The notes beneath the pieces are model-generated. The model was given only the letters and a program-made list of their open reading frames with translations. It made no database searches and had not been told where the DNA came from. Shown here one piece after another: positions 1-21,330 of a stretch of DNA of 47,980 nucleotides. The DNA is from a bacterium. Lineage in GTDB: Bacteria; Nitrospirota; Thermodesulfovibrionia; Thermodesulfovibrionales; JdFR-85. The translations under genes and the position numbers were made by a program. Location: contig BTTF01000002.1 in the NCBI GenBank assembly GCA_036244995.1, forward strand, positions 1-47,980. The letters are read 5' to 3'. Position 1 is the stretch's first letter. Each line of letters begins with the position of its first letter.

Positions 1-6
1 TGACAG

Positions 7-1329
7 CTAAAATGTACGCCTGTTATTTGCACTTGAGCCATGGGAATGACAGATAGAACACCTTATGGGAGGCGGCGGATTACTACCCCCGATTCCATGA
101 CAGTTTCTGCACCGGTTCTCTGTATATGGATGATCAGGACTACTGATGTGGTGAATATATTCCCAGGCATTGACCGTTCCACCGTTATAATCATTATCAT
201 CAATGTGACACTGCCTGCAGAGGTAACCGAAATTTTTAGTTCCGCTACCGACTGTCCCGATCAGGAGACTTCCGTTCACCTCTCTTCTTATAAAATAGTC
301 ATTGGGTGAGCCGTGCGGTTCATGGCAGTCGGTACAGGAAAGCACATACTGTCCATAATTTGTGGGTAAAAAGGGAGGGTCTATATCAATTCCTACTGTT
401 GCACCATTCTTTCCATGCTTGTCTCCGGATGTTGTAGCATCTCCACCTGCAGTAACCCAGTCAATAGGTTCCAGGTTTCCTCCAAGCGTAGTGCTGTAAA
501 TTGTGTTTGTCGTATTATGGCAGTCCGTACAGAGGGAGACAAAGTCCGTAAGGTTGGAGCCATCCTGTGTGGTGGACCCATCGGGCTCAAAAGTTGTGGT
601 GGAATTATAACGGTAGGGGGCCTGATACAATAAACCGCCAACATAGTCGCTCATCTTCTCCCCGGCAGCATCCCCCCAGAGTCCCCAGGCATTATTATCC
701 TTGCTGTGCATACTTGGACGAGATACAGGCCAGCCCCTTGTACTGATGCTCTTGGCACTGTTAGGGGCATTAATGGGGTCACCCTGGGCTGAGTGTGGAT
801 TATGGCAGGCAACACAGGGATTTGAGTCAGACGTGTAACCCCATCTTCCGCTAATAAATGTGCTTATATCGTCAAGGTGGTGGGAAGTGCCGGAAGTGGT
901 AAAGTCAAAGGAAAATGCCTCAAGGATATCATTCAGGGTATCTGAGGTCCAGCCGCCTGCCCGAAAGCTGTAACTGCGGTTTACAATACTGCCTCCTGTC
1001 TGATAAGAGCTCATATCAGTATGGCAGTCAAAGCAAAAATCCGAAGTCTGGCCGGTATAGTTTGTATCAAACAGCATATAGTTATCCGGTCCACCGGTAG
1101 GGGCCGGCTCAGACCCGCCGATACTTGCATGTTGCTCATGACAGTGGGCACAGAGCCCTCTCGGATAATCAGTGGGAAAACCGGCGGCAGAGCGTTTGAC
1201 CCCATAGGCGCTATCCCCGTGGGCAGAGTTAAGGTAGGGACCGGCGCCTGCCGGGCCGGTGTACAGAAAGACCACTGCAACAAGGAAGATGACCGATAGA
1301 ATCAATATTGTGTTTTTTCCACGTCTCAA
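7..1329 (-). CDS. secreted octaheme c-type cytochrome
   Basis: 440-aa ORF with a TTG start 8 nt downstream of GGAGG. Hydrophobic signal peptide. Eight CxxCH motifs (CAHCH, CFDCH, CVACH, CTDCH x2, CRQCH, CRNCH, CSICH), widely spaced in a Gly/Ser/Thr-rich sequence. Confidence 0.85.
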   Translation of the reverse strand: MRRGKNTILILSVIFLVAVVFLYTGPAGAGPYLNSAHGDSAYGVKRSAAGFPTDYPRGLCAHCHEQHASIGGSEPAPTGGPDNYMLFDTNYTGQTSDFCFDCHTDMSSYQTGGSIVNRSYSFRAGGWTSDTLNDILEAFSFDFTTSGTSHHLDDISTFISGRWGYTSDSNPCVACHNPHSAQGDPINAPNSAKSISTRGWPVSRPSMHSKDNNAWGLWGDAAGEKMSDYVGGLLYQAPYRYNSTTTFEPDGSTTQDGSNLTDFVSLCTDCHNTTNTIYSTTLGGNLEPIDWVTAGGDATTSGDKHGKNGATVGIDIDPPFLPTNYGQYVLSCTDCHEPHGSPNDYFIRREVNGSLLIGTVGSGTKNFGYLCRQCHIDDNDYNGGTVNAWEYIHHISSPDHPYTENRCRNCHGIGGSNPPPPIRCSICHSHGSSANNRRTF

Positions 1330-1386
1330 TTCTCTAACCTCCAGACCGGCTATTTACTACACGCAACGACCGTGTCATTAATGACT

Positions 1387-2478
1387 TCAGTTCCTGGACG
1401 TATGGCAAACGTTACACCCGTACAGGGCTGTCGGAAGAAAGGTGCTCTTGTAGTTCCACCGCAGCATTTTATAGTAGGGAGAACCATGAGCCCTGTGACA
1501 GGAGAGACAGATAACCCTGTCGGTTCCCGGGGTTACGGTACTCACAGCAGAAGTCAGCCCGTCAGTCAGTGATGCTGCCGGCCTTCCAACAGGCACTGTA
1601 GCCTTATAAATAGTCGACATGGAAGTAAACTCTCCCGAGTCCGGAATAATCACGTCTGTCGGGTGTCTCAGCCACGGTGAAGCTGAACCGATACCGCTGC
1701 TGCCCCCCAAATGAAACGTCGAATGACATTCAGAGCAGAGCTCACTGATTGTTCCCTTCATATTTGCCCATGAGTCAGTAGTACCCCTCGTGGCATAGGT
1801 TTCAGCCAGATACTCATTGTGGTCCGTAGCACTCACGGTAGCCTGCCAGTCACTGTCCTCTGCACCCTTTATCTTGTAGAGGAACCTGTAACTGGTAGCC
1901 ACAGTGGCCCCCTGCCCGGTCAGTGTAAAACCGGCGCTGTACTTGAGGATCGAGTCATCACCGTGATGCCCCCCGCTGACTGCGTCCCACTCATCAGAAA
2001 AATCCCTGTTGCCGTGACAACCGTTAGACCCGGCACATACCAGGCGGCCGGCAGTACTGAACCCTGTTGTTGAAGGATCATAGGCGCTGTTATATCCAGG
2101 CGGCGTATTGCCGAGTGTAACATCTTCCGAGATTATACCCTGAACATTATGTCCGCTCGAGTCTGCAAGTAAAACATAGGAAAAATTCCCTGCTGCAAGG
2201 TCTGTAGGGTCGGAATGGTAAACCTGGGGAATAGTGTTGAAGATATTAGTGCTGCGATTCTGTGCATGACAGCCTATGCAGTTACCACGGAGCAGTCTCT
2301 GGTTGGGCGTAGCAGAGTTGTCATAATTCATAGGAACTCCATCCTGGCTGTTGTGCATGGTGTGGCAGTTGCTGCATACGCCGCTAACCTCTGCCCTCAC
2401 TTCACCGAACAGCATCAGCACCAGCAAAAGAGTAAAGCAGATTAGTGTATGTATCCTTTTATTCATCAGGTTTTGCAA
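1387..2478 (-). CDS. OmcS-like hexaheme c-type cytochrome, paralog 1
   Basis: 363-aa ORF with a signal peptide ending VRA-EV. Five CxxCH motifs plus one CAGSNGCH. The motif series CSNCHTMHNS, GHNV, WLRHPT, CLSCHRAHGSP and C-terminal CNVCHT parallels OmcS as I remember it (CEGCHTMHNS, GHNI, LRHP, CLSCHRAHAS, CNKCHAKD). An alternative ATG start lies at 2466. Confidence 0.8.
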   Translation of the reverse strand: MQNLMNKRIHTLICFTLLLVLMLFGEVRAEVSGVCSNCHTMHNSQDGVPMNYDNSATPNQRLLRGNCIGCHAQNRSTNIFNTIPQVYHSDPTDLAAGNFSYVLLADSSGHNVQGIISEDVTLGNTPPGYNSAYDPSTTGFSTAGRLVCAGSNGCHGNRDFSDEWDAVSGGHHGDDSILKYSAGFTLTGQGATVATSYRFLYKIKGAEDSDWQATVSATDHNEYLAETYATRGTTDSWANMKGTISELCSECHSTFHLGGSSGIGSASPWLRHPTDVIIPDSGEFTSMSTIYKATVPVGRPAASLTDGLTSAVSTVTPGTDRVICLSCHRAHGSPYYKMLRWNYKSTFLPTALYGCNVCHTSRN

Positions 2479-2501
2479 AACACTCCTGAAATTATATATT
2501 T

Positions 2502-2529
2502 ATTATATATTATGCATATTATAATGCAA
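2502..2529 (-). promoter_or_regulatory. candidate sigma-70 promoter for paralog 1 (TTGCAT, 16-nt spacer, TATAAT)
   Basis: The minus strand reads TTGCAT-16 nt-TATAAT about 25 nt upstream of the start codon. The region is very AT-rich, so other -10 hexamers are possible. Confidence 0.35.
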
Positions 2530-2726
2530 TAGCCGTACCATAATATTTACAGATAAACCTTGCAGGGCAACTTCTACCTCTCTGTAAATTATGCAAGCTG
2601 ATACTGCCAAAAAAAAGAGTCTTTTTTAAAAAACTTAAAACATCCAGGTAATTCTGAAACCATTTCCTCTCTATCTGCAAATGAAGACCTAAACACTGTA
2701 ACTCAGTACACACCTTTAGCCTCATT

Positions 2727-4037
2727 TTATTTTTTATGACACTGGATACAGAGCTGTCTCTTTCTATCAAAGGCAAGCATAAAATCAGCCTTGGCTGAGT
2801 GCATACTATGACATGAAATGCAGGTAATCGGCTTACCGTTACGCGGGTCTATGACTCCGGCGCCTAAAGGATGTGTGATTTCATGCTGTGACTCATGGCA
2901 CCTGGAACAGGTTACAATATCATTTGTTTTGAAATAAAGAGGCTGATTCGAATGTCGCGGCACATGACATGCAAAACACTTCCTGTTCTTGACAGGAGCA
3001 CAACGGATGGACTTTAAAGTCTTCTCCATCAGAAGCGTCCTTTTCTCTGTCTTTTCATGGCAGCCGAGACATACGCCTGCTGCATTTACAGTCAGATTCT
3101 TCCTTTTCGATGCATGAGGATTATGACACATGGTGCAGACATTTTTTGCATCAGCGCCATGAACATCCGCCACCTTGAATGTTGCAAGGACATCTTTATG
3201 GCAACCAAGGCACAAGGCATCACCCTTTCTTTTAGTGGTTATCTTCCCATTGGCAACAAAAGGATTATGGCATTGTTCACAATCCTTTTTCAGAAAGGCT
3301 GTATGACCATAAGGACCAAGGAGACCTTTAGCATCAGAGGCGTGTCCTGAGTGACATTTGGTACAATTCATTGCTTTTGTGACATAAGTTATGGAGACCC
3401 CGCCCGCCTTGCACTGTGGGGCATGATGACAGCTTCGGCACAGCTTGGCAGGGGCGGCAAGCAACTGATTCTCCTCCGAAGATGCATGTGCATCATGGCA
3501 TGATGAACATTTCCCCTCCTTAAAAACTGCGTGTATTTCAGTCTTATCAAGTTGCCCCTTAAGGTCCTCGTGGCAATTCCAGCAGAGTTTCTTTTCTGTG
3601 CTGACTAAAAGGTATTTATTTTTCCCGCTATGTGGGGTGTGACAATCCGTACACACACCTTCTTTAAGGGCTCCGTGCAAACTGGACTTCCGTATAAGAT
3701 TCCTGATACCCTTATGACAACCCAGACAGACGGTATCAACCTTGGCTTTCATCAGGCCCTTCGTATCACTCACATGAGAATTATGACATGAAATGCACAT
3801 ACCCTGTTTAAACGGAAAATGGACATACTTGTCAGACAGGCCTTTCTTCAGCTTTACATGACACTGATAGCAAAGAGCCGGCACACTCGTTTTGAGGTCG
3901 GACCGGGCATAGGCATTGCTACCCAAGGCTGATAATATAAACGTTATCAGCATGAAACATGCAGCGATTAAGGTTAATGCTGAAAATCTTCTGTCATTTA
4001 TGACAGGCTTCACAGTCCCCCCTGGCAAATGGATCAT
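2727..4037 (-). CDS. 16-heme c-type cytochrome (c7-like bi-heme repeats)
   Basis: 436-aa ORF with a signal sequence (RRFSALTLIAACFMLITFILSALGSNAYA) and 16 CxxCH motifs, roughly one per 27 aa, often followed by xxH. Its start overlaps the upstream 26-heme gene by 44 nt. An alternative GTG start lies at 4013. Confidence 0.85.
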   Translation of the reverse strand: MIHLPGGTVKPVINDRRFSALTLIAACFMLITFILSALGSNAYARSDLKTSVPALCYQCHVKLKKGLSDKYVHFPFKQGMCISCHNSHVSDTKGLMKAKVDTVCLGCHKGIRNLIRKSSLHGALKEGVCTDCHTPHSGKNKYLLVSTEKKLCWNCHEDLKGQLDKTEIHAVFKEGKCSSCHDAHASSEENQLLAAPAKLCRSCHHAPQCKAGGVSITYVTKAMNCTKCHSGHASDAKGLLGPYGHTAFLKKDCEQCHNPFVANGKITTKRKGDALCLGCHKDVLATFKVADVHGADAKNVCTMCHNPHASKRKNLTVNAAGVCLGCHEKTEKRTLLMEKTLKSIRCAPVKNRKCFACHVPRHSNQPLYFKTNDIVTCSRCHESQHEITHPLGAGVIDPRNGKPITCISCHSMHSAKADFMLAFDRKRQLCIQCHKK

Positions 4038-5979
4038 GCTTTATTTTTTTAAGCAGCCCCGGTTTCTCTGTTACATGGGGTTCATGACAGCTCAGACACT
4101 GCCTGATTTTAGTTACGGACTTTCCGTCATGCACCTTCAACAATCTCTCCGTGTCTGTTGAATGGCACTTAAGACATAACGCCGGGTCCCTGGCATTCAA
4201 CAAGTCTTTTGATTCAGAGTAATGGGCAGTATGACAACTCAAACAGTCCCCTTTTTCCATATCTATATGCCCCTTTCTGACCCTGGTAGTCACTACACTT
4301 TCATGACATGAAAGACAGAGTTCCTCAGGGCGGCTTAAAAGTTGATACTCAACCTTGGTCCCATGTGGACTATGACAGGCCGTACATTTCCCTTCCTCCA
4401 CTGGCAGGTGCCTGTGTTTGCTGCCCTTTAGCGCGGCCTTTGTGGCCTTATGACACTTGTAACAAAGCTCCGCCATAGGCATGAGAGTGTTTGCCGTGTA
4501 ATCACTGGCATGTGGGGCATGACATGTCAGGCACTCCCGGTCCCTGAATGGAGGATGCATCTCCTTTGCTTTAACCTCCGGCAACATACTGTCATGACAA
4601 TTGAGGCAGAGCTGAGCCGGCGAACTGCTCAGCAAATTCCTGTAATCAGATGCATGCGCCTTATGGCAGGAAAGACATTCTCCTTTATTCACAGGTGTAT
4701 GAATATAGGTCTTAAAAAACTCCTTCTCCTCCTTTTTATGACAGCTATAGCATAACTGAGCCCGCACAGCCTTAAGCATATCAGGAGTATCGGTGCCGTG
4801 GGGATCATGGCATTTTGTGCATTGAAGCTCGGAGAACGGCTTATGCGTGGATATTTCTTTTAACTCCTTTTTCATACCGGTATGACATGTAAGGCATATC
4901 TGCCCTTCAGGTGCATTCAGATAAAAAGGATTTCCGGAGCCGTGCGGGTCGTGACAGACTGTGCAGCCTTCCTCCTTTTTTATGGGTGCATGCAAGTCAG
5001 TCACGTCAATCTTAGGCTTACCGGCATGACACTTTAAACAAAGAGCCTTTTCATCCATAAGGGTAAGCTTCGGATAATCCGAGGCATGCGGACTGTGACA
5101 GTCAAGACATTTCCCCGCGCCCGCGGGAGGATGCCTGTAAGCCGTTTTAAACGCCTTCTCTTCTTTCTTATGACAGATATAGCATAGTTTGGCATCCTGA
5201 GCAATAACACCAAGTGGATCCGGACCTCCCGCGGGTTTATGGCAGGAGCTGCATTGCCCGAGTTCCAGGGGAACATGGACCGATTTCCTGAGCAAGTTGT
5301 CATTTGTTGAACTGTGGGGGTTATGACAGCCTGTACATTTACCCTGTTGAACCGGATAATTCTTATGTGCCTTCCTGAAACTACCCGCCGCAGGGTCATG
5401 ACACGACCGGCAGAGATCCGCTTCATCCTTTATGAGATTATCCTTATATTTAGAGCCATGGGCTGCATGACATACAAGACATCCGTCTGAAAGGGGTTTA
5501 TGGCGATTAGCCCTCATAAAGGGAGCCCTGTCATGACAGGTAAAACACTGCTCACTGCCCTTGTTTTTCAGAAAAAACCTGTTTTCAGATGCATGGGGGT
5601 TATGGCAGGGGACACACTTGCCCTGCTTCAGGGCAGTATGCACATTCGGTAATTTAGCTATATCCGAGGCCATCTTCTGATGACAGGTAAAACAGAGCTT
5701 TCGCTCCTCCCTCTCCCTGAAGGATTTAACAGCGAGCCTTCCATGACGAAGGTGGCATGCCTCACAGTCCCGCTTACTTACCGGAGAATGCACATACTTC
5801 TTCTGAAATTCCTTCAGTTGCTCCTTGTGACAATCCAGGCAGGGTTTTGGTTCAAATCCCTTCCTTCTTGCCATATCTTCAGGAACACATGCATAGATGA
5901 GGCTTAAGATAAAAAACAGAAGGAGGACTTTTAAGATATTCTTTCCTTTGGGGTTAATCATTCCTCTCACAATTGCCAA
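3994..5979 (-). CDS. 26-heme c-type cytochrome
   Basis: 661-aa ORF with an N-terminal hydrophobic segment ending LIYAC, a possible lipobox. I counted 26 CxxCH motifs by hand, about one per 25 aa. The repeated pattern is H-x(8-12)-CxxCH-xPH. TTG start at 5979, alternative ATG at 5961. Confidence 0.85.
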   Translation of the reverse strand: MAIVRGMINPKGKNILKVLLLFFILSLIYACVPEDMARRKGFEPKPCLDCHKEQLKEFQKKYVHSPVSKRDCEACHLRHGRLAVKSFREREERKLCFTCHQKMASDIAKLPNVHTALKQGKCVPCHNPHASENRFFLKNKGSEQCFTCHDRAPFMRANRHKPLSDGCLVCHAAHGSKYKDNLIKDEADLCRSCHDPAAGSFRKAHKNYPVQQGKCTGCHNPHSSTNDNLLRKSVHVPLELGQCSSCHKPAGGPDPLGVIAQDAKLCYICHKKEEKAFKTAYRHPPAGAGKCLDCHSPHASDYPKLTLMDEKALCLKCHAGKPKIDVTDLHAPIKKEEGCTVCHDPHGSGNPFYLNAPEGQICLTCHTGMKKELKEISTHKPFSELQCTKCHDPHGTDTPDMLKAVRAQLCYSCHKKEEKEFFKTYIHTPVNKGECLSCHKAHASDYRNLLSSSPAQLCLNCHDSMLPEVKAKEMHPPFRDRECLTCHAPHASDYTANTLMPMAELCYKCHKATKAALKGSKHRHLPVEEGKCTACHSPHGTKVEYQLLSRPEELCLSCHESVVTTRVRKGHIDMEKGDCLSCHTAHYSESKDLLNARDPALCLKCHSTDTERLLKVHDGKSVTKIRQCLSCHEPHVTEKPGLLKKIKHDPFARGDCEACHK

Positions 5980-6053: not shown

Positions 6054-7805
6054 CTATTTCCGGAGCCTTTCCTCAAGTGACTTTACTGCCTTATCATATA
6101 TCTTTATACGCGCCTTTGCCTTCAACTGTGCTACAAACTTATCCCGGAGGGCATTAAACTGTTCTTTAAAACAGGCCTTGTAAACAGCATCTCTTACTTC
6201 TTCGAACCTCCCGATTTCACCCTTAAGCTTTCCCTGCAAACGGATTATTCTGTAAAATGAACTCACCTTGAATACCGGACTTATCTCTCCCGTCTTCAGT
6301 GCAGCCACAATCTCCCTTACAGGCCCTGGAAATTCCTGCATGGTAAGCCATCCAACCTCTCCACCTTTTGGACCTGCAGAATCAATCGACTTCTTCATAG
6401 CCAGCCATGAAAAATCCGTACCATCCTGCAGATTGCTCAACAGCTCCCTGGCCTCATCCATGGTCTTCACCGTAATCTGCCGGACTCTAAACCTGACAGG
6501 TTCGGCAAAATCTTCCCGGTGTTTCATATAGTAGTCTTTCAAGCTCTTATCTGAAACTTTGATCTTTGGGATAATTACTTTATTGATGAATGCCTGCTTT
6601 AATAACTGGTCCTCATAACGCTCTATCTTTTTCTTTAAATCCGGTGCAGTCTCGTAATGCCGGCTGAGTGCCTCATGGTCAACCACCTTACGGTCAATCC
6701 AGCTATTAAGGATATTTTCCTTTGCTTTCCCCTTGTAAGGCCTGGCCATGGCTGCAAACTCACCTGCAGTAAGGACCGAGCCATTCACCTCTGCCACTGC
6801 CCTTTTATCCTTTGACCAATCAGATGCCTTCTCATCCCCCTTATCCCGGCTTATAGCTGAAAGCAGCTCCTTATTAACCTTAACGGCAGCGTGTTCACGG
6901 AGATATTCCAGGTATTCATCGGCACGCTCTTTTTCCTTCTGTTTCCTGACAATCTTCTCTATCTCTTTTCGGACATTTTTAAGGTCTTCATCAGGCGCCT
7001 CTTTCCTGCTGACCAGCTTTACTATATAATATTTATCCCGTATTTTAAGAATATCACTCAACTCACCGGGGCTGAGACCGGCTATAGCTTCACCAATATA
7101 GGGTGACATGGACCTTCGTGTAAGGACAACATCCACTCCATTTTTCCCGGAATGATGAGTAGAATACTTCCGGGCAAGGTCACTGAAGTCGGCTCCCTTC
7201 TTTAGTTGTCCTGCTATATTACCGGCCTCTTCTTTTGAACTTACCTCAATAATGCCAAGCGAAAACCTCTCATAGTTCTTCTTGTAATAGCCTGGAATAT
7301 CCTTATCCGATATTGAGACCTTACGGGAAATCTCCTCGTCATAAAGCTTCACGACCGACTCCCTCAGAATATACGCCTTAACAGCCTGTTGTACCTGGGG
7401 GTCCTGCTCCATGCCCATACGGCGGGCTTCCTCAATAATCAGCATATCATCTATCAGCTTCTGCACATACTCCGACAGAATCAAGTTCCCTGCAGAGGAG
7501 AGGTCTTCCCTGCGATGGGTTATCTGCAGCGAATACTTCAAATCTTCTTCAGTAATGGGCTCGCCATCAACAACTGCCAATATCTTTTCCCTTGCCGTTA
7601 TCTCCCCCCTCTGCCGAAGGGAGACACAACCACCCACAAAAGCAAACAGCAGGAAGAAAACAACAACAGATAAAATTCCTGCATTTATAGAGGCTGCAGT
7701 CTTTCCCGTATTGGAAGAGCTGCCGGGCGAAATCCCTGACTGTTGACCGGTGACTATGGCCTGCCTTTGCGCCATACTGCTATCTCCGTTTTTTATCATT
7801 TTCAT
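6054..7805 (-). CDS. lipoprotein peptidyl-prolyl cis-trans isomerase, SurA/PpiD-like with two parvulin-type domains
   Basis: 583-aa ORF with a membrane or lipoprotein signal (FAFVGGC). It has a SurA-N-like helical region and two parvulin-like segments (FSLGIIEVSSKEEA...DKYYIVKL and FRVRQITVKT...SSFYRIIRL). Confidence 0.7.
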   Translation of the reverse strand: MKMIKNGDSSMAQRQAIVTGQQSGISPGSSSNTGKTAASINAGILSVVVFFLLFAFVGGCVSLRQRGEITAREKILAVVDGEPITEEDLKYSLQITHRREDLSSAGNLILSEYVQKLIDDMLIIEEARRMGMEQDPQVQQAVKAYILRESVVKLYDEEISRKVSISDKDIPGYYKKNYERFSLGIIEVSSKEEAGNIAGQLKKGADFSDLARKYSTHHSGKNGVDVVLTRRSMSPYIGEAIAGLSPGELSDILKIRDKYYIVKLVSRKEAPDEDLKNVRKEIEKIVRKQKEKERADEYLEYLREHAAVKVNKELLSAISRDKGDEKASDWSKDKRAVAEVNGSVLTAGEFAAMARPYKGKAKENILNSWIDRKVVDHEALSRHYETAPDLKKKIERYEDQLLKQAFINKVIIPKIKVSDKSLKDYYMKHREDFAEPVRFRVRQITVKTMDEARELLSNLQDGTDFSWLAMKKSIDSAGPKGGEVGWLTMQEFPGPVREIVAALKTGEISPVFKVSSFYRIIRLQGKLKGEIGRFEEVRDAVYKACFKEQFNALRDKFVAQLKAKARIKIYDKAVKSLEERLRK

Positions 7806-7815
7806 TACCTGTACG

Positions 7816-9032: not shown

Positions 9033-9638
9033 TCAGTATTTAGCAAGTGTCCGGATAGCATCTTTTACTACCCTCAACAGTGTCTCACTCATAGTCTCTG
9101 TCCTTGCACCAAAATGTCTGGCCATAAACCCGCCCCCAACACCCGTGCTTGTAACCGACCATATAATGCTCCCTGAACCTGTATCTGCCATCATAAGGGT
9201 AATGGTTACATTTGGTGCGGAAATACTTCCCATCCTGACCATTCCGAACTGCTCAACAGAGCCGAAAATAAGCGCCTGCACGCCAAGGGCAGTCCCCAAA
9301 GCCTTTATCTGTTCAGTGTTCAGGGATGAGACAGACTTAATCCCCAGACGGTCAATGGCAGCCTTTACCTCTCCGGGAATCACTACATCAACAAGACCCG
9401 AGGCCAGCAGTTCACTGATAACCACCTGCCTTACAGCCTCAGCGGCAAATCTCTCACTGGTCAGATTATTCAAAGGCAATACCGCTACCCGTTTTATAAA
9501 ACCGAAATCCACATCCTGACGGACATGAAATGAAGGCATGCTGCTACGACATCCTGCGCCAAGGAGCAATAGACAGAGCATACCTGTCAGGGCATATTTC
9601 TTCAGCAAGTCCATATCGTTTCTCCTTTTATTCTTCAT
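9033..9638 (-). CDS. lipoprotein with a CsgG/TolB-N/DUF799-like module
   Basis: 201-aa ORF with lipobox LLGAGC. The module reads VAVLPLNNLT...ALIFGSVEQFG...TITLMMADTGSGSIIWS. Confidence 0.65.
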   Translation of the reverse strand: MKNKRRNDMDLLKKYALTGMLCLLLLGAGCRSSMPSFHVRQDVDFGFIKRVAVLPLNNLTSERFAAEAVRQVVISELLASGLVDVVIPGEVKAAIDRLGIKSVSSLNTEQIKALGTALGVQALIFGSVEQFGMVRMGSISAPNVTITLMMADTGSGSIIWSVTSTGVGGGFMARHFGARTETMSETLLRVVKDAIRTLAKY

Positions 9639-12884: not shown

Positions 12885-14480
12885 CTAATACGGAAACATT
12901 GCTATGCCATAGGGATTTTTACCCACAGGGATAACCCTTTCTACTTCTCTTGCAGTTCTATCTACTACAGAGACATTATCGGAACCCCGGTTAACTACAT
13001 AGAGATTTCTGACCTCAGGGTCCATAATCATGGACCTCGGAGAAGTTCCTACAGGTATGGTACCTATTACCAGGGGCATTACCGTACCCACAGTATAGTA
13101 ATCCTCCAAAAGGGGTCTGATAATCATTATCTCACCAGGAACCTCCCTCAACAGATAAAGCCTGTCAAAGGACGGGTCAACAACAACTCCTGTGACAGAG
13201 GTACCCACATCACTGATATCGCTGACAGCTCCCTTCTCATCCCCTTTAATAACCTTTATGATATCTATGACCGAGAGCCTGTCGGAACCATAATTAGCCA
13301 CATAGACCTTTCCCCTCTGATAGTCTATAGCGAGCGCCACCGGGCTCCATTCTACACTTAACCTGGCAACCTCTTCAAGCCTGCCGCTCTGCAGGTCCAT
13401 CCTCAGTACCGAGACATCCCTGGAATCCTTATTAACTACATACACATTAAAATATCTTTCACGGTAATTTCTTAAGATATTAACATCCTCAAGACTGAGA
13501 AACCGCGACGCCGTGACAGTCTCTGCCGGTGGGTCTACTGCCACTGCTATCGGACCATTCCCGACATCTACCTTATCTATCTCCTGATAGGTTGAAGCAT
13601 CAACAACGGATACCGTATCAGAGGCATAATCGGTCACGAAGATAAGGTCCTCCCCTGAGGGTCCCCTGGCTACCGCTATACCCTCCGGGGCACTACCAAA
13701 CCGGATCGGTATCTCCTGTTCCACTTTATTAGTGGTAGGATCAATCACTGAAATGCTGTTAGAGCCTGAGTTTGCCACATAAACCCTCAAACGGTCCCTC
13801 CTCAAACCTGCAGCAATACCTCTGGGTCTCCTCCCCACCCTTACAGTTGCTACAACCTCACCTAATTGTCTGTTAATCACGGAGACATTATTCGAATCCT
13901 CATTGGTAACATAAACAAGAAGACTGCTGAGCTCCGGGACCTGCCCCTTAACAGCAAAAACAGGCTTAAACAGGTATTTATCGGCAACAGAAGCATCTGC
14001 ATCCCAAGTCAGGAACAATGATGTGTCCTGGTCTTTATATACGGTAATATTTACGGCTACCTCTATTCCGCCGGAAGGCAAGGCTAAACGTGCCATCCTG
14101 CCTTTTCTCCTGATCAATGCCCGTTTAACAACAAGCCGGAGTTTTTTATATCTGCCCTCCGGTAGACTTTTTTCAGCTAAAAGTATCTGACGGCCCTTCA
14201 CGGCAATGGAATTTATATTCAGAGGGGTGCTCGTTATCTCTCTATAGGTACCGTCTTCCGCCATAATATCGATTGCGGTCAGATCAAATGAAATATCAAC
14301 AGAAGTATCATCTGCACCCTTCAAAAAAAGGTCAATCTGTCCCCGGGAATGCCCGGAGACATTCCGCTGTCCCTTAATGGCCGTGCATCCCGTTAAAAGG
14401 AAAAACGAGCAAAAGACCAGGAACATGAAACTCCTCGCTAAAACTGCTGTATCTTTATAAAGATGTCCATTGTTCGACAT
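12885..14480 (-). CDS. lipoprotein with a DUF4382-like N-domain and a YVTN-family beta-propeller
   Basis: Lipobox LLTGC. It carries repeated YVTN motifs: VYVANSGSNSISVID, IFVTDYASDTVSVVD, VYVVNKDSRDVSVL, VYVANYGSDRLSVID and LYVVNRGSDNVSVVD. I chose the ATG at 14480 (GGGAG upstream, 32-aa signal). The ORF is open up to 14555. Confidence 0.75.
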   Translation of the reverse strand: MSNNGHLYKDTAVLARSFMFLVFCSFFLLTGCTAIKGQRNVSGHSRGQIDLFLKGADDTSVDISFDLTAIDIMAEDGTYREITSTPLNINSIAVKGRQILLAEKSLPEGRYKKLRLVVKRALIRRKGRMARLALPSGGIEVAVNITVYKDQDTSLFLTWDADASVADKYLFKPVFAVKGQVPELSSLLVYVTNEDSNNVSVINRQLGEVVATVRVGRRPRGIAAGLRRDRLRVYVANSGSNSISVIDPTTNKVEQEIPIRFGSAPEGIAVARGPSGEDLIFVTDYASDTVSVVDASTYQEIDKVDVGNGPIAVAVDPPAETVTASRFLSLEDVNILRNYRERYFNVYVVNKDSRDVSVLRMDLQSGRLEEVARLSVEWSPVALAIDYQRGKVYVANYGSDRLSVIDIIKVIKGDEKGAVSDISDVGTSVTGVVVDPSFDRLYLLREVPGEIMIIRPLLEDYYTVGTVMPLVIGTIPVGTSPRSMIMDPEVRNLYVVNRGSDNVSVVDRTAREVERVIPVGKNPYGIAMFPY

Positions 14481-14588
14481 AAACTCCCGGGTTTCGACAA
14501 AATGTTTTTTTGTTATATTTGCAATCAACCTAATTTGCTGATAATTGCTGTACATCTTTCGCCTTATCTTAGTTTTTTTCAGACCTCC

Positions 14589-15524
14589 TTACTCCTTAGG
14601 CTGATACACTTCCACCCTGTTATTAAAGGTATCGGCAATCAGTATCCTGCCTGTTGAGTCGATTGATATATCCCTGGGGTACTGAAACCATCCTGCTGAC
14701 AGGCCAAGACCCCCAAACTCGAACAGATAGTTACCGTTCCTGTCATACGCAGAGACAGTATGACGCATATAATCCACCACATACATCCTTCCGTTTCGAT
14801 TATCTACTCCAACAGCCATCGGACGGCTCAGCTTGCCTGTACTCCCTCCCTTACGGCCAAATTTGAAAAGAAACTTCCTGTTCTTATCATAGACATATAT
14901 ATGTCCCATTTCCTCGCTGACAAGATATATCCTGCCTGCCTTATCCAGGGTCACATCGTTTAATTTCACCTTTCTCCCCTCTTCTTCAGGTGATATTATC
15001 TCCAGGAGACGGCCTTGATTACTCAGGACCAGAACACCGGGGAAATAGGATCCCGCCACATAGATATTACCCGCTTTATCCATGGCCAGGCGATACGGGT
15101 TAAACGACCCGGATCCCTCAAAACCCTTCAGATAAATATCACGCACCCACTTAAGACATGCGTTGAAAACAGAAATTCTGTGTCTGGGGTTATCTTTTGT
15201 GGCAGACTGAACAACGTAAAGATTACCTTCAGCATCCAGAGTCAACCCCTGGGGTGATTCAATGCCGTTTCTTTTATCAAGGGTAAACAGGGGGAAAAAA
15301 TCCGATGTATATATGATAATCCTGCTTTTCCCATCAATAACGTAAACCTCTTTACTGACCGGATCCGCCCACACAAAGGAAGGGAAAAACAACCCGTCTT
15401 CTTCTGCTTCCACTATGCTGTATGCATGGACTACAGGAACATCCTGCAACTGGGCCTCTATCTTGCGCTGGACGAGAAGAAAGGGCATTACAAAGGAAAT
15501 AATTATAACAAGGATACGGAACAT
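14589..15524 (-). CDS. NHL-repeat beta-propeller protein, secreted
   Basis: 311-aa ORF with AGGAGG upstream of the ATG and a signal peptide. NHL-type repeats include GNLYVVQS, GNIYVAGS, GRIYLVSEEMGHIYVYD, GRMYVVDYMRHTVSAYD and GRILIADTFNNRVEVY. Confidence 0.75.
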   Translation of the reverse strand: MFRILVIIISFVMPFLLVQRKIEAQLQDVPVVHAYSIVEAEEDGLFFPSFVWADPVSKEVYVIDGKSRIIIYTSDFFPLFTLDKRNGIESPQGLTLDAEGNLYVVQSATKDNPRHRISVFNACLKWVRDIYLKGFEGSGSFNPYRLAMDKAGNIYVAGSYFPGVLVLSNQGRLLEIISPEEEGRKVKLNDVTLDKAGRIYLVSEEMGHIYVYDKNRKFLFKFGRKGGSTGKLSRPMAVGVDNRNGRMYVVDYMRHTVSAYDRNGNYLFEFGGLGLSAGWFQYPRDISIDSTGRILIADTFNNRVEVYQPKE

Positions 15525-15709: not shown

Positions 15710-16792
15710 TTAGTAGGCATCTTTCTGTGTATGACACCTCAAACAACCTGTACCGGAGCTCAGACTCGTCTGATAGCTGAACCGCAGACTATCGGGATAA
15801 GGAGAACCATGGGGCCTGTGACAGGAAAGGCATATGACCCTGTCGGTGCCGGCGGTAACAGTCCCTATTGCTGCAGTCAACCCGTCAGCCAGTGATGCCG
15901 CAGGCCTTCCAACCGGAGTCTCATCACTATACGTAGTTGATACAGAAGCAAACTCCCCTGAGGCCGGGATTACCACATCTGTCGGGTGTCTCAGCCACGG
16001 TGATGCAGAACCGATACCGCTGGTTCCACCTATATGGAACGTGGAATGACATTCAGAGCACAGCTCACTGATTGTTCCCTTCATATTTGCCCATGTGTCA
16101 GTAGTACCCCTCGTGGCATAGGTTTCAGCCAGATACTCGTTGTGGTCCGTAGCAGTCACGGTATTCTGCCAGTCACTGTCCTCTGCACCCTTTATCTTGT
16201 AGAGAAACCTGTAACTGGTTGCCACGCTGGCCCCCTGCCCGGTCAATGTAAAACCGCTGCCGTACTTGAGGATCGAGTCATCACCGTGATGTCCCCCGCT
16301 GACTGCGGTCCACTGATCAGATGAATTCCTGTTGCCGTGACAACCGTTAGACCCGGCGCACACCAGACGGCTGGCAGTATTAAACCCTGTTGTTGAGGGG
16401 TCATAGGCGCTGTTATATCCAGGCGGAGTATTGCCGAGTGCGGCATCTGCCGAGGTCACTATACCCTCAACATTATGACCATAGGAGTCCCCGTTGTTCA
16501 CAACATACGAAAAATTCCCTCCCGCTAGGTCTGTAGAGGCAGAATGGTAGACCTGGGGTATGGAGTTGACGATATTGCTGGAGGTGTTCTGTGCATGACA
16601 GCCTACACAGCTACCCCGGAGCAGTTTCCCGTTAGGAGTAGTCGAGTGATCATACGTCATAGGAGCGCCATCCTGGCTGTTATGCATGGTGTGACAGCTT
16701 GAACAAACACCGGATACTTTGGCATCAGCATAAGAATAAATAAAAATTGCAGACAGAAATACTAAAAGCATTGTCATCAATGTTTTTTTCAT
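15710..16792 (-). CDS. OmcS-like hexaheme c-type cytochrome, paralog 2
   Basis: 360-aa ORF with GGGAGG 9 nt upstream of the ATG and a signal peptide ending YADA-KV. It has the same motif series as paralog 1 (CSSCHTMHNS, GHNV, CAGSNGCH, WLRHPT, CLSCHRPHGSP, CLRCHT). The central 460 nt are about 92% identical to paralog 1. Confidence 0.8.
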   Translation of the reverse strand: MKKTLMTMLLVFLSAIFIYSYADAKVSGVCSSCHTMHNSQDGAPMTYDHSTTPNGKLLRGSCVGCHAQNTSSNIVNSIPQVYHSASTDLAGGNFSYVVNNGDSYGHNVEGIVTSADAALGNTPPGYNSAYDPSTTGFNTASRLVCAGSNGCHGNRNSSDQWTAVSGGHHGDDSILKYGSGFTLTGQGASVATSYRFLYKIKGAEDSDWQNTVTATDHNEYLAETYATRGTTDTWANMKGTISELCSECHSTFHIGGTSGIGSASPWLRHPTDVVIPASGEFASVSTTYSDETPVGRPAASLADGLTAAIGTVTAGTDRVICLSCHRPHGSPYPDSLRFSYQTSLSSGTGCLRCHTQKDAY

Positions 16793-17035: not shown

Positions 17036-17188
17036 ATAACTTTTTCAGCCCCTTCAGTCCCGGGCTGAATGGTCGGAGCTATAAATTTAACAGGCAATCC
17101 CGCTATTCTGTAGTTTTCTACATACTTTATGTAACATTTTACACAATCATTCCAGCTCTGCTCTCCGCCAATATCAAATAACAACGGT

Positions 17189-18280
17189 CTATTGCCCCTT
17201 CTGCGTATGACACGTAAGACATCCGTCACCACGGCTCAACATATTACTGCTGTAATCCCACCTCAACATATCCTGATAGGGACTCGCATGTGCCCTGTGA
17301 CACGAGGGACACATGATTATACTATCCATATCCACAATATCTTCTCTGCCTGTAGGGTTTTTATAGGCAACAGGCGCCTGGAGGCTATAGATAGTATAGC
17401 CCTGAAACTCAGAGCCTGCATACCCCCCGCGTACACTGCTGAAGGCAATGTCAGTGGGGTGCCTGAGCCAGACAGTCTCACCAACCTCTGTCTCACCACC
17501 AAGATCCGGATTTGGATGAAACTTGCCATGGCATTCACCACAAAGGTAACTTATGGTATCCATAGTGCTGTGACTGGTGTCACCCTTATAGCCGTTATGG
17601 TCATCAGTGGTGGCCTGATATTCCCAGTCCTTCTGTTCCTTGCCTTTTATCCCGTAAAGAAAGCGATAACTCCTGCCCACAGTTGAACCGTCAATCACAC
17701 TGTCATCCGCATGATGTGCTCCGTAAATGGACTTGAACGGCTTCTCTACAGTCCTGTTTCCATGACAGCCCCACGTGCCCGCACAGGTAAGCTGCTGTTG
17801 CTGTGGCCAGTATGAAGGCCCGATGCCTCCAGGAATCACAACGTTTCCCATAAACCCGGGTGGTGCATCCATGGGTGGAGGCTCCTGAAGTGAAATCCCC
17901 AAAACGTTGTGCCCCTTTGAATAATCAGGGTTAAAGTCGTCCGAGACATAATAAAAGTTTCCAGCAGCAAGGTCTCCGTTATCCATGTTATGGATTACCT
18001 GCGGGATTCTTGTCTTCCCCATAATTATAATATTCCTGGTACCGGAAGGATCCTGGGCATGACAACCGAGACAACCACCCTTTGTCAGGACAGGATTGGG
18101 TTTAACGGCGTGCATGGTGTGGCAATTCTTGCACTTCCCCTTCACCCTGGCATCAATATTTGAGGGAAAAGACAGGACAAGGAACATAGAGAACAGAGTA
18201 AAAAACACGGAGCAAAGAGCATGGAAATGCTTCCACTTAAAACCTCGCTCCATGCCCTTTGCTCTCAGCGCTTTGCCCAT
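17189..18280 (-). CDS. OmcS-like hexaheme c-type cytochrome, paralog 3 (divergent)
   Basis: The motifs are CKNCHTMH, CLGCH, GHNV, CAGTWGCH, CGECH, WLRHPT, CPSCHRAHASP and CLTCHT. The ORF is open to 18316 (TTG). I chose the ATG at 18280, 2 nt after the upstream stop. The ATG at 18253 is also plausible. Confidence 0.75.
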   Translation of the reverse strand: MGKALRAKGMERGFKWKHFHALCSVFFTLFSMFLVLSFPSNIDARVKGKCKNCHTMHAVKPNPVLTKGGCLGCHAQDPSGTRNIIIMGKTRIPQVIHNMDNGDLAAGNFYYVSDDFNPDYSKGHNVLGISLQEPPPMDAPPGFMGNVVIPGGIGPSYWPQQQQLTCAGTWGCHGNRTVEKPFKSIYGAHHADDSVIDGSTVGRSYRFLYGIKGKEQKDWEYQATTDDHNGYKGDTSHSTMDTISYLCGECHGKFHPNPDLGGETEVGETVWLRHPTDIAFSSVRGGYAGSEFQGYTIYSLQAPVAYKNPTGREDIVDMDSIIMCPSCHRAHASPYQDMLRWDYSSNMLSRGDGCLTCHTQKGQ

Positions 18281-18282
18281 TG

Positions 18283-19341
18283 CTATTCGCCCTTGCCCGT
18301 ATGACATATTAAACAACCGCTGCTGCCTTCTTCCCCGGCCACAATGGAATCATAATCCCACCTCAGCATAAACTCATTAGGGCTACCGTGTGCCACATGG
18401 CATGAAAGGCACATGACAATGTCTGTACCGGGTCTCACCTCCTCACTGGAAACGGCAGGGACTGCCGGCCTCGCCACCGGTGCATCAAGGCTGTAAATCC
18501 TTATGCCGGGTTTATCGGGTGGAGGCGGCACATCGGGGTTATAGCTCAGATATTCCCCCCTTTTCGGCAGGACAATACCTGTGGGATGCCTGAACCATGG
18601 ACTTGCCCTGCCTATCTTGTCCCTGCGGTAAAGACCGCTATGGCAGTCTGCGCAGAAGCGGTTGATTGAGGATGTATACTCGTTATGTTTCTTTGAAGAA
18701 GCAGTGTGGCCCCAATCCTTATCCTCCAGCCCGGTAACCCCCTTTACTTTAGCGGTTCTTTTCAGAAACCGGTAACTCCTGGCCGTAGTGCTGCCGTCAA
18801 CAGGAAAATCGTCTGAATGATGTGCCCCCAGAATAGCAGCAAAGGGATTTTCAATATTCCTGTCACCGTGACAGCCATTGGAACCTGCACAAGCCAAGGG
18901 CTTTTTATCGTTGAATCCAATAGTGGAGGGATCGGAAAACCTGTCATACCCCGGAGGCATAAAACCGTTTTTTGCATCCGGTGAGGCAATACCATCAACA
19001 TTATGCCCTCTCCTGTCACCAAAAACCTTAACATAATAGAAATTGCCGCCTGATAAAGGCCTGTCCGGGTCTACCCTGCTGTAGACAACAGGCACCCTGG
19101 CACCACCCAGCATTTTTATGGTATTACTGTCGGCATTCGAGTGACAACTTACACACATGGAGTTCTGAAGGACATATCTTAACGGTTTACCGGGAGCCGC
19201 TGCCTTCATCATTCCGGGATAGAGACTATGACAGACCTCACAATCCCCTACGACCACGGCCTCACCGTCATTTGGAAACCGGAGGACCAGCAACATACAG
19301 AAAAAGATAAGGACAGTTACAATAATTACCTGTTTTTTCAT
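18283..19341 (-). CDS. OmcS-like hexaheme c-type cytochrome, paralog 4 (most divergent)
   Basis: The motifs are CEVCHSLY (no second His), CVSCH, GHNV, CAGSNGCH, CADCH, WFRHPT, CLSCHVAHGSP and CLICHT. I chose the ATG at 19341 (MKKQVIIVTVL... signal). The ORF is open to 19392. Confidence 0.75.
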   Translation of the reverse strand: MKKQVIIVTVLIFFCMLLVLRFPNDGEAVVVGDCEVCHSLYPGMMKAAAPGKPLRYVLQNSMCVSCHSNADSNTIKMLGGARVPVVYSRVDPDRPLSGGNFYYVKVFGDRRGHNVDGIASPDAKNGFMPPGYDRFSDPSTIGFNDKKPLACAGSNGCHGDRNIENPFAAILGAHHSDDFPVDGSTTARSYRFLKRTAKVKGVTGLEDKDWGHTASSKKHNEYTSSINRFCADCHSGLYRRDKIGRASPWFRHPTGIVLPKRGEYLSYNPDVPPPPDKPGIRIYSLDAPVARPAVPAVSSEEVRPGTDIVMCLSCHVAHGSPNEFMLRWDYDSIVAGEEGSSGCLICHTGKGE

Positions 19342-19460
19342 AATCAGTATTCGGGTTGATTTCTGCTCTTTAAACCATAACTCAATTATCAATTAAAAAT
19401 AAAAGCAAAAACAGTGCCAACATTTAAGGAGTTGTAAATAACAACCGGGATTCTCTCTTG

Positions 19461-20924
19461 TTATTTTTTGCTTTTCACCGGCCTTTTATGTCCCTTTTTA
19501 ACCCCATGACAATTTGGGCAGAGCTCAAAAGTACTTTTGGCAGGGTACCTGAAAAGGTGTATATAATCAGAGCTGTGCTGGTTATGACAGCTCGCACATG
19601 TAAGCTCTCCATACCTGGCCTTCGGGTCTTTTCTGCCCCTGATTGGATGCCCTGCCTGAGTAAAGGTGCCTGCCACATGGGGCGCCTTACCTATACTCGG
19701 ATGACACTGAAGGCAAAGATCGGTTATCGGAAGGTCCAGCAGTGCAACGTTTGAAGAACCGTGAATATTATGACATAGAGTGCACATACCTGCCGATACC
19801 GGAGGATGCTGGTTCTTCCTGGTAAAATCCGAACTGTCGTGGCAATTAAAACAGAGTTCCGGCAGCTTGGCAACAAGAAGCTTCTTCACATCACCCTGAT
19901 GCGGCTGATGACAGAAGAGGCACATACCTGCCTTAACAGGATAATGATTATATTTCCCCTTAAACTCGGCCCGGATATGACACTTAAAACACAAATCGGG
20001 AACATCCGCCAACAACAATTTCTCCGAGGCTGAGGCATGAGGGTTATGACAATTCAGGCATAAACCCTTCAGTACAGGCGCATGGTGTTTCTTCTTTGTA
20101 TCCGATATGTACTGATCCTTAACATGACACATAAAACATAGCTTCGGCGGTTTCAAGACAAGAAGCTTCCTGTTGTCACTGCTGTGTGGGTCATGACATG
20201 TTGTACACATACCTGCCGCCACCGGCGGATGAGTCGATTTGTTCTTGAATTTTGTCCTGTCATGGCACTTGAAGCAGAGATCAGGAACAGAAGCTCTCAG
20301 AATCTTCGGATTATCCGTGGAATGGGGATTATGACATAATAAACACTCACCTCTTGCCACCGGCGGATGGACTACCTTTTTTGTAAACATGGCTTCATCG
20401 TGACACATAAAACACAGCTCCGGCGGTTTCAAAACAAGAAGCTTCTCGTTCTTACTGCTGTGCGGGTCATGACATGTTGTACACATACCTGCCGCCACCG
20501 GCGGATGGACTGCGTTTTTTGTAAACATGGCTTTGTCATGACACATAAAACACAGCTTCGGAGGTTTCAAAACAAGAAGCTTCTCGTTGTCACTGCTGTG
20601 CGGGTCATGACATGTTGTACACATACCTGCCGCCACCGGCGGATGAACTACCTTTTTTGTAAACATGGTTTTATCATGACAGGCCCAGCAGACATCAGCC
20701 CCCTCAGCAAACAGATAGTTCGGGAACTCCGCCCCTTTCCGGTGAGCCTGGGCATGGCATGTTACACATCCCATCTTAACAGCAGGATGCACAACCTTCT
20801 TTGCAACCATGTCCTTATGGCATTTTTTACAATCAGTAAATTTCCCTGCTGAGGAAATTAGTGGAACAAGAAAAAGGATGACTATAATAGTGGTAAAAAA
20901 ACTTATAGCATGCTTATAGTTCAT
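19461..20924 (-). CDS. 19-heme c-type cytochrome built from 46-aa bi-heme repeats
   Basis: 487-aa ORF with AGGAG upstream and a signal peptide. It has 19 CxxCH motifs and internal near-identical repeats (MFTKKVVHPPVAAGMCTTCHDPHSSDNEKLLVLKPPKLCFMCHDKA). Confidence 0.85.
   Translation of the reverse strand: MNYKHAISFFTTIIVILFLVPLISSAGKFTDCKKCHKDMVAKKVVHPAVKMGCVTCHAQAHRKGAEFPNYLFAEGADVCWACHDKTMFTKKVVHPPVAAGMCTTCHDPHSSDNEKLLVLKPPKLCFMCHDKAMFTKNAVHPPVAAGMCTTCHDPHSSKNEKLLVLKPPELCFMCHDEAMFTKKVVHPPVARGECLLCHNPHSTDNPKILRASVPDLCFKCHDRTKFKNKSTHPPVAAGMCTTCHDPHSSDNRKLLVLKPPKLCFMCHVKDQYISDTKKKHHAPVLKGLCLNCHNPHASASEKLLLADVPDLCFKCHIRAEFKGKYNHYPVKAGMCLFCHQPHQGDVKKLLVAKLPELCFNCHDSSDFTRKNQHPPVSAGMCTLCHNIHGSSNVALLDLPITDLCLQCHPSIGKAPHVAGTFTQAGHPIRGRKDPKARYGELTCASCHNQHSSDYIHLFRYPAKSTFELCPNCHGVKKGHKRPVKSKK
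20089..20700. repeat. intragenic tandem repeat, period 138 nt (about 4.4 units)
   Basis: Unit boundaries (ggatg...ccaccggc) fall at 20227, 20365, 20503 and 20641. Units 20365-20502 and 20503-20640 are nearly identical. The second half of unit 20089-20226 is also nearly identical to them. Unit 20227-20364 has diverged. Confidence 0.85.
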
Positions 20925-21300
20925 AGACTCCTGATTATTAACTTACAGGCAATACCTGTTATAGTCATAAGGATAAAGACCGCCTTCGCTCCCTGGCAAG
21001 CCAGGGAGTTTCCGTTATGACAGAAAGTGTAGCAGGAGAGGACAAAATCACCATTACACAGCCTTTCCGCTCAAGAAGAAACGGCTACCTTCTCTTTTCC
21101 TGTTCTTCCCGGCAGGCTTCTCTACCGGTATACTTTTGTGAATGCCATGATCTCCGGTACAGTTCAGACCCTCATGTTTACCGGCAACATAAAGGCCTGC
21201 AGGAACTAAAAAAGATAAGGTTTCTGCAATAGCTGATTTCAAAAAAATAACCTTAAATATATCCTGCCTCCCAGTACGTATTATAATATATATTTTGCAA

Positions 21301-21330
21301 ATTATACGAAAGACAGCTTTCATTCGTCAA
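21301..21330 (-). promoter_or_regulatory. sigma-70 promoter (TTGACG, 18-nt spacer, TATAAT) heading the cytochrome locus
   Basis: The minus strand reads TTGACG-aatgaaagctgtctttcg-TATAAT, 40 nt downstream of the yraN stop. It is about 370 nt upstream of the 19-heme cytochrome ATG. Confidence 0.5.

Follow-up and report, generated by a model that had tools for sequence, protein, structure and literature searches.

Even in Geobacter, it is not settled by what route a cytochrome that is already folded and carries its hemes passes the outer membrane and forms a polymer (PMC12307469; bioRxiv 10.1101/2025.10.22.684050), and a cytochrome-rich locus on a Nitrospirota contig bears on this problem. The locus lies in contig BTTF01000002.1 of assembly GCA_036244995.1, from a bacterium of the Thermodesulfovibrionia; positions 1 to 47,980 of the forward strand were analysed and are referred to below as the window. 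An earlier reading of these letters, made without database searches (hereafter the sequence-only reading), had described an OmcS-type cytochrome filament locus accompanied by a complete set of companion genes. Our analysis makes it likely that this is a Nitrospirota version, of Thermodesulfovibrionia type, of the omcS/osc cluster of Geobacter, a self-contained module which builds and wires an extracellular cytochrome polymer.

In the list of open reading frames (ORFs), fifteen co-directional genes (g1 to g15; Table 1), all on the minus strand, span positions 7-20924 of the window. Their common direction had been recognised in the sequence-only reading, but the fourteen genes reported there fall one short, and the items in its own list sum to fifteen. 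The window edge lies 6 bases past the stop codon of g1, and our view of the locus ends at that point. Direct motif counts give 89 CXXCH and four CX5CH sites, or 93 heme sites overall, which agrees with the earlier figure of about 93 as well as with the cytochromes of 8, 16, 19 and 26 hemes that had been described.

Geobacter loci around OmcS and around the OscE-type barrel gene were compared with the window proteins by blastp. The Geobacter cluster encodes, in order, an NHL protein, OmcS, OmcT, OscB, OscC, OscD, OscE, OscF, OscG, OscH, OscI, OscJ and a second NHL protein, and our assignment of the osc letters agrees with the locus tags for oscC, oscI and oscJ in PMC13194489. OscB is a spermine-synthase-like membrane protein of 1017 aa, OscC is OmcS-like, OscD is a propeller of YncE type and OscH a PPIase, while OscE, OscF (LpoB/GNA1162-like) and OscG comprise 725, 199 and 392 aa, respectively. 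From OscD onwards, each member is matched in the window: OscD by g10 (E=1.6e-28), OscE by g9 over its full length (E=4.9e-32), OscF by both g8 (E=3e-26) and g7 (E=3.7e-24), OscG by g6 (E=2.4e-31), OscH by g5 over nearly its full length (E=1.7e-32), OscI by g4 (E=1e-156; 41% identity, 660 versus 661 aa, 26 hemes in both) and OscJ by g3 (E=1.7e-73; 35% identity, 16 hemes in both). For OscD to OscH, the alignments extend over the full or nearly full length. The companions are collinear, with the order OscD-E-F-G-H-I-J corresponding to g10-g9-g8/g7-g6-g5-g4-g3. Common to the Geobacter sulfurreducens cluster (GSU2504-GSU2493) and the window are, in addition, one or more NHL propellers and several OmcS-family paralogues, namely OmcS, OmcT and OscC in the former and g2, g12, g13 and g14 in the latter. 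The NHL protein of the window, g11, resembles both of those flanking the Geobacter cluster, i.e. the 315-aa upstream protein (E=7.4e-17) and OscK (E=1.2e-9).

The composition which the sequence-only reading had given for GSU2492-2504 is essentially right. Its companion statement, that no function had been shown experimentally for these genes, is outdated: roles have been reported for OscH in folding, for OscE, OscF and OscG in secretion, and for OscD in morphology (Shen et al. 2025, Cell Chem Biol 32:239, as cited in PMC13194489). According to the same citation, the genetic evidence for these roles comes from Geobacter only. The proposal that the non-cytochrome genes form a dedicated envelope machine agrees with the published Geobacter model and is, for the window, inherited by homology.

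The two clusters are not identical. In the window, OscF is duplicated, OmcS-like genes flank the companions on both sides, and two cytochromes are additional. One of these, g15 (19 hemes), contains doubled-CXXCH modules like those of g3 and g4 and matches OscI (1.3e-64) and OscJ (2.3e-58); the other, g1 (8 hemes), is lineage-specific and unmatched in the Geobacter osc cluster.

Conservation of the neighbourhood extends well beyond this pair. We scanned species-representative genomes with the barrel alignment, using patterns which matched Nitrospirota only, while other lineages were reached separately. The scan yielded 38 loci, all from Nitrospirota/Thermodesulfovibrionia, and each of them keeps the order g11-g10-g9-g8-g7-g6-g5-g4-g3 as far as its contig reaches, with OmcS-like genes upstream, and usually also downstream, of the companions. 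Identities of the nine core genes range from 34 to 82% across these 38 species-level genomes and lie at ~25-40% in Geobacter and other lineages. Both OscF copies (g7 and g8) are found in nearly all 38 loci, and g3 in all Nitrospirota loci which reach that far. In 13 Nitrospirota loci, a homologue of g1 comes after the downstream OmcS-like gene, and g15 occurs in only three of the 38 (L003, L008 and L015).

The closest barrel relatives, at 75-95% identity, come from hydrothermal Nitrospirota metagenome bins, while distant homologues (31-38% identical to Geobacter OscE) occur in the same kind of cluster in L042, L043 and L045. A barrel-family profile searched against 1.84 billion representative proteins retrieved 1,757 clusters, including 1,073 with E<=1e-30; of the best 150 of the 1,757, almost every one is 650-790 aa long. 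By source name, OmcS-type or OscE-type proteins belong to Geobacter, 'Deltaproteobacteria', Anaeromyxobacteraceae and Nitrospirae. The arrangement in L045 (GCA_016208845.1, a metagenome-assembled genome labelled Nitrospirae; positions 1-14405) is rearranged: OscH/OscI/OscJ-like genes occupy the opposite strand, upstream of NHL-like, OmcS-like, OscD, OscE, OscF and OscG genes, and a response-regulator/PilZ gene sits between the two blocks.

At the level of the sequence family, g2, g12, g13 and g14 are OmcS-family cytochromes, and the four hexaheme paralogues of the sequence-only reading stand. OmcS (6EF8/6NEF) is the sole significant PDB match of g2 (E=3.4e-5, residues 34-350 versus 8-354); g14 by itself falls short of retrieving it (E=0.099). 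A profile of 73 Nitrospirota homologues, all four paralogues included, aligned by hhalign with 120 Geobacter-type OmcS sequences at a probability of 99.9% (E=3.7e-35), and OmcT matched g2 in blastp at 3.5e-14. The two checks proposed with the sequence-only reading, on whether the paralogues retrieve OmcS-family proteins and whether the companions co-occur with OmcS-like genes in other genomes, thus both have a positive outcome. All six heme positions are collinear with those of OmcS, five of them being CXXCH and the third CX5CH, and the last heme motif lies, as in OmcS, at the extreme C-terminus. In the joint alignment, heme motifs 2-6 have invariant Cys and His residues, those of motif 1 are nearly invariant, and three histidines outside the motifs (GHN, LRHP and CHRAH) do not vary either.

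The putative third attachment site, which reads CAGSNGCH or CAGTWGCH and falls at residues ~145-185, aligns with the third CXXCH of OmcS. It is kept as CX5CH in 69/73 Nitrospirota homologues, whereas the Geobacter-type OmcS homologues that were checked have CXXCH at the heme-3 position. The heme-attachment motifs listed in a 2024 survey are CX2CH, CXCK, CX2CK, CX3CH, CX4CH, CX11CH, CX15CH and CX17CH (PMC11492766); CX5CH is not in that list, and a full-text literature search for 'CX5CH' gave nothing. Divergence is fastest in the g2 and g12 types, whose orthologues share a median identity of 40-41% as opposed to 48-65% for the companions, and this fits surface exposure.

The ligand that joins one OmcS subunit to the next is reportedly His16, the H of CHTMH, which Wang et al. 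in 2019 are said to have found binding heme 5 of the neighbouring subunit. The histidine aligned with it stands within the CHTMH of g2, g12 and g13, and is kept in 26/26 g2-type, 25/25 g12-type and 10/11 g13-type sequences (61/62 together); CHTMH is likewise present in all three Geobacter paralogues. Bonding of a heme to a histidine from the adjoining subunit is described for OmcS in PMC12307469. The g14 type departs from this pattern while retaining all six heme motifs: none of 11 sequences has His at that column, seven having Tyr and four Phe, and g14 itself reads CEVCHSLY where the others read C..CHTMH. Orthologues of the g14 type (in L008, L011, L015, L017, L025-L027, L034, L038 and L039) are usually paired with a g13-type gene, and at least 10 Nitrospirota loci keep the g13-g14 pair. 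The g14 type has 12 conserved His columns and the other clades have 14-15, a count by which self-ligating and neighbour-ligating models could not be told apart. On this residue pattern, the g14 type may be regarded as a candidate end, cap or base subunit; if so, it would be analogous to the terminator or adaptor pilins of chaperone-usher pili.

The 757-aa outer-membrane barrel which had been proposed for g9 is borne out by its AlphaFold2 model, with a mean predicted local distance difference test (pLDDT) score of 90.9 and ~28 strands by DSSP, and by a C-terminal Phe. According to DSSP, 11 strands precede an inserted beta-rich domain (~266-431) and 17 follow it, and the loops of the barrel are short. 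The insert is modelled as a beta-sandwich of ~165 residues (window 11444-11941, ending ...VLVTEIEAYG) and, judging from the strand count, would be placed on the extracellular side. It is possibly discoidin/CBM32-like, a label resting mainly on sub-threshold matches to PF00754/PF22633 in two g9 homologues (~1e-5) and on the UniRef name of the Geobacter barrel homologue, 'F5/8 type C domain-containing protein'. The insert has no Pfam match of its own, and its profile matches CBM32 structures in PDB weakly (E=0.027 for 4LKS, up to 0.35). No NCBIfam or Pfam model, that of the MtrB/PioB family included, matched g9. Foldseek returned generic large barrels only, with MtrB, LptD and the PapC usher as the best of them at template modelling (TM) scores of 0.33-0.37; at TM values no higher than 0.37, we claim no specific structural relative for g9.

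Next to the barrel gene lie those for proteins related to PelC. The g7/g8/OscF profile matched PelC (5T11, 2.1e-8; 9H80_C, 2.3e-7, positions 17-193 of the profile) and left GNA1162, LpoB and CsgG far behind; the g6/OscG profile matched PelC with both of its halves (9H80_C, 2.4e-4; 5T11, 1.7e-3). By profile similarity, then, g7, g8 and both g6 modules are PelC-like. The sequence-only reading had envisaged three lipoproteins built from one alpha/beta module; the shared module is indeed present in g8, g7 and, twice, in g6, but clear lipoboxes occur only in g7 and g8. In the window, g6 has no canonical lipobox (ITNVCYA) and looks ordinarily secreted, and the N-termini of its homologues vary.

PelC is itself a lipoprotein, which forms a 12-mer ring on the PelB barrel (PMC12141448). 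The likeness to PelBC (5T10, 5T11, 5T0Z, 9H80) lies in small outer-membrane lipoproteins, or a secreted protein in the case of g6, encoded beside an outer-membrane barrel. The differences are that the cargo of the window system would be a folded heme protein and not a polysaccharide, that the g9 barrel (~28 strands) is unrelated to PelB, and that four modules are spread over three proteins instead of forming one homo-oligomer. Both the four PelC-like modules of the window (g8, g7 and two in g6) and the three of Geobacter divide twelve, and it may be hypothesised that this is more than coincidence.

Lipoprotein signals are carried by g4, g5, g7, g8 and g10. The earlier description of a double-parvulin lipoprotein fits g5, in which PF13145 (3e-33) covers two rotamase stretches alongside SurA_N_2 and the lipobox FVGGC, and the two propellers are likewise as described, the NHL propeller being g11 and the YVTN lipoprotein propeller g10 (TIGR02276, 1.1e-51; PF14321 and PF21783; lipobox LLTGC). 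The 26-heme g4 passes the cutoff of TIGR03508, the DmsE/MtrA family model (296.5 versus 192.2 bits), and its 13 doubled-CXXCH units are what a long heme rod would be expected to contain. A Cys closes its signal peptide in 14/14 homologues inspected; g4 is thus a lipoprotein, whereas Geobacter OscI has an ordinary signal peptide.

Two other assignments for these cytochromes were tried and rejected. TIGR03153, the model for an NrfH-type quinol dehydrogenase, matched g4 below threshold (74.5 bits, with a cutoff of 134). This reading was set aside since the homologues of g4 carry a lipoprotein signal and since its first heme motif does not have the CXXCHXM form of NrfH. An OmcZ-like octaheme identity for g1 was dropped, the search of g1 against PDB having given a match to neither OmcZ nor OmcS.

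From these parts, we infer a route by which the polymer may be made. The hexaheme g12/g2 and g13 proteins would be exported by Sec and loaded with heme in the periplasm, where the SurA/parvulin lipoprotein g5 (OscH) would handle them. They might then exit through, or be mounted on, the g9 (OscE) barrel, beneath which the PelC-like modules of g8, g7 and g6 would be arranged as a periplasmic ring, on the analogy of the PelC 12-mer on PelB; bioRxiv 10.1101/2025.10.22.684050 cites a model of porin-like mounting. Outside the cell, subunits would polymerise head to tail, the His16-aligned histidine of each ligating heme 5 of the adjacent one, and the propellers g10 (OscD) and g11 (NHL) may influence the form of the filament. 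Electrons would be brought across the periplasm to the filament base by g4 (OscI, 26 hemes) and g3 (OscJ, 16 hemes), acting as rods of MtrA-like modules. Because no orthologue of g14 has the His16-aligned histidine, g14 would be restricted to one end of the polymer, which it may cap or seed. A bolder form of this scheme would be a paralogue-specialised assembly that combines the g14 type as a dedicated end subunit (seed, anchor or cap), PelBC-like ring-plus-barrel export, and CX5CH as a previously unlisted heme-attachment motif; we hold this combination to be speculative and rather improbable.

Several observations weigh against the reading of the locus as a filament-building module. By tblastn, OscB was found neither in the 48-kb window nor in the 38 Nitrospirota loci, and is present in L041, L042 and L043; g10 is without the single CXXCH of Geobacter OscD. 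The window subunits are only 22-27% identical to OmcS, with ~330 mature residues to its 407, ~70 fewer loop residues and the unusual third site. The AlphaFold2 model of g2, built on an alignment of the window paralogues and 36 OmcS homologues, came out at a mean pLDDT of 38.7, too low to support either the OmcS fold or the subunit interface. To our knowledge, no filament has been seen for any Nitrospirota member of the subfamily. The mechanism of secretion and anchoring in Geobacter is still called speculative in PMC12307469. Lastly, MtrB (6R2Q_B) is among the best structural neighbours of g9, at Foldseek TM-scores of 0.33/0.37, and this fits an electron conduit as well as it fits secretion.

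Such a conduit, without any polymer, is the main alternative. In it, g9 would sheathe the tip of a g3/g4 rod in the manner of MtrB and MtrA, the OmcS-like proteins would be monomers docked at the surface, and the lipoproteins and the peptidyl-prolyl isomerase (PPIase) g5 would only assist assembly. MtrCAB conduits do resemble the locus in pairing a large short-loop barrel with long periplasmic MtrA/DmsE-like rods and surface cytochromes, and the TIGR03508 score of g4, the place of MtrB among the best TM-scores, and a subfamily with no known filament all speak for it. The resemblance, however, does not extend to sequence, where g9 matches neither MtrB/PioB nor any other NCBIfam or Pfam model, and the TM-scores to MtrB are low, with LptD and PapC scoring similarly. 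The rods of the window have 16 and 26 hemes and not 10, its surface cytochromes are of OmcS type and not MtrC type, and its PelC-like lipoproteins, PPIase and propellers are without an Mtr counterpart. Moreover, the orthologous Geobacter cluster has been reported as needed for OmcS nanowire formation, and the inter-subunit ligand residue of OmcS is retained throughout the g2-, g12- and g13-type sequences with a single exception. We consider a conduit lacking a polymer unlikely, while noting that conduit and filament-assembly roles could coexist. Nothing was found in favour of a third reading, in which unrelated cytochromes and envelope proteins became neighbours by chance; it is refuted by the recurrence of the nine-gene core order from the Nitrospirota loci to Geobacter and other lineages, and retains practically no probability.

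The remaining alternative concerns physiology and not the identity of the locus: the filament may serve electron uptake or cell-to-cell exchange (syntrophy, or the oxidation of minerals or metals) in place of the reduction of an external acceptor. Related clusters of multiheme and NHL-propeller genes have been associated with the uptake of electrons from electrodes in the sulfate reducer Desulfovibrio ferrophilus (PMC5815863). Most Thermodesulfovibrionia respire sulfate or sulfur, and the window has an AcsV gene, which is a hint of the Wood-Ljungdahl pathway. Metagenome surveys, on the other hand, took Thermodesulfovibrionia OmcS genes as markers of iron reduction (PMC8478452), and the direction of electron flow is not set by sequence. 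We regard this use of the filament as less likely than not.

Read as the Thermodesulfovibrionia counterpart of the omcS/osc cluster, the locus is of incremental value, since it leaves the picture published in 2025 unchanged. The type of system was described in that year and is called widespread in the title of the report (Shen et al. 2025, Cell Chem Biol 32:239), and marker-gene surveys had earlier pointed to OmcS genes in Thermodesulfovibrionia (PMC8478452). New here are CX5CH at heme 3, the His-less g14 clade, the PelC-like lipoproteins, the predicted ~28-strand barrel with its insert, and the lack of OscB. A distant and collinear version of the cluster helps to tell its conserved parts (barrel, PelC-like modules, SurA/parvulin chaperone, propeller, and the rods of 26 and 16 hemes) from those that vary or can be dispensed with (OscB, the OscD heme and the copy number of OscF). 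It also marks vent and groundwater Thermodesulfovibrionia as likely users of cytochrome wires, while the His-less paralogue, CX5CH and the relationship to PelC offer points at which initiation or termination, and the architecture of export, can be tested.

Table 1. Genes of the cytochrome locus, with positions in the window.
Gene	Positions	Strand	Assignment	Features
g1	7..1329	-	octaheme c-type cytochrome, 440 aa	signal peptide; 8 CXXCH; PF22113 9e-12 (MtrC/MtrF domain II/IV-like region)
g2	1387..2478	-	OmcS-family hexaheme cytochrome; candidate filament subunit	5 CXXCH + CX5CH; 74% identical to g12
g3	2727..4037	-	16-heme periplasmic cytochrome, OscJ orthologue	16 CXXCH
g4	3994..5979	-	26-heme lipoprotein cytochrome, OscI orthologue	26 CXXCH; MtrA/DmsE-like doubled-CXXCH modules
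g5	6054..7805	-	lipoprotein, OscH orthologue	SurA-like N-domain + two parvulin PPIase domains
g6	7816..8985	-	OscG orthologue	two PelC/LpoB-like alpha/beta modules; signal peptide
g7	9033..9638	-	PelC-like lipoprotein, OscF paralogue	lipobox LLGAGC
g8	9687..10283	-	PelC-like lipoprotein, OscF paralogue	signal peptide end ...FMWGC
g9	10463..12736	-	757-aa outer-membrane beta-barrel (predicted), OscE orthologue	
g10	12885..14555	-	lipoprotein, OscD orthologue	DUF4382 domain + YVTN/YncE-type beta-propeller
g11	14589..15524	-	NHL-repeat beta-propeller	PF01436 5.7e-17
g12	15710..16792	-	OmcS-family hexaheme cytochrome; candidate main filament subunit	5 CXXCH + CX5CH
g13	17189..18316	-	OmcS-family hexaheme cytochrome	5 CXXCH + CX5CH
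g14	18283..19392	-	OmcS-family hexaheme cytochrome	5 CXXCH + CX5CH; Tyr at His16-aligned position
g15	19461..20924	-	19-heme cytochrome	signal peptide; 19 CXXCH; TIGR03508 206 bits

Two pairs of listed ORFs overlap, g3/g4 by 44 nt (3994-4037) and g13/g14 by 34 nt (18283-18316). Since the listed ORFs of g3 and g13 open at the first possible ATG, GTG or TTG, the true starts of both are probably further downstream; for g3, the 44-nt overlap with g4 likewise suggests a start downstream of the listed TTG.

The top sigma-70-like promoter match of the locus (17035-17006, minus strand) reads TTGACA-18-TATATT with TG and agrees with the consensus at 11/12 positions. It sits in the 397-bp gap (16793-17188) upstream of g12 and would leave a leader of ~210 nt to the start codon. 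As a consensus match alone, the site fits separate strong expression of the subunit gene. GEMM-type riboswitches are known upstream of Geobacter genes for extracellular electron transfer. The Rfam scan of the window found none of this type; nothing in the window reached gathering thresholds, and the gaps upstream of g12 and g2 gave nothing meaningful. Terminator-like sites are not enriched (19 found, 17.4 expected), and no tRNAs were found in the window.

The boundary of the locus near 21330 is real. Its upstream neighbours are YraN (21370-21723), hisD and a gene of the Sfum_1244 family, whose function is unassigned (23183-24250, minus strand; E=6e-106). The AcsV gene, for a corrinoid activation/regeneration protein, stands isolated on the plus strand (24350-26254), its match (E=6.8e-207) scoring 688.7 bits, below the model cutoff of 800 bits. 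Two ORFs, at 37757-38605 (plus strand) and 26275-26628 (minus strand), are without an NCBIfam match. Elsewhere in the window lie IHF, SppA, rpsA, ispH, cmk, an aromatic amino-acid operon and a flagellar flgF-flgK cluster, and because the rest of the window consists of housekeeping genes, we take the locus to be chromosomal. The flagellar basal-body and hook cluster (39459-47386, plus strand) runs flgF, flgG, flgA, flgH, flgI ... flgK and indicates a motile diderm, the diderm envelope following from the presence of the L- and P-ring genes flgH and flgI in the same window.

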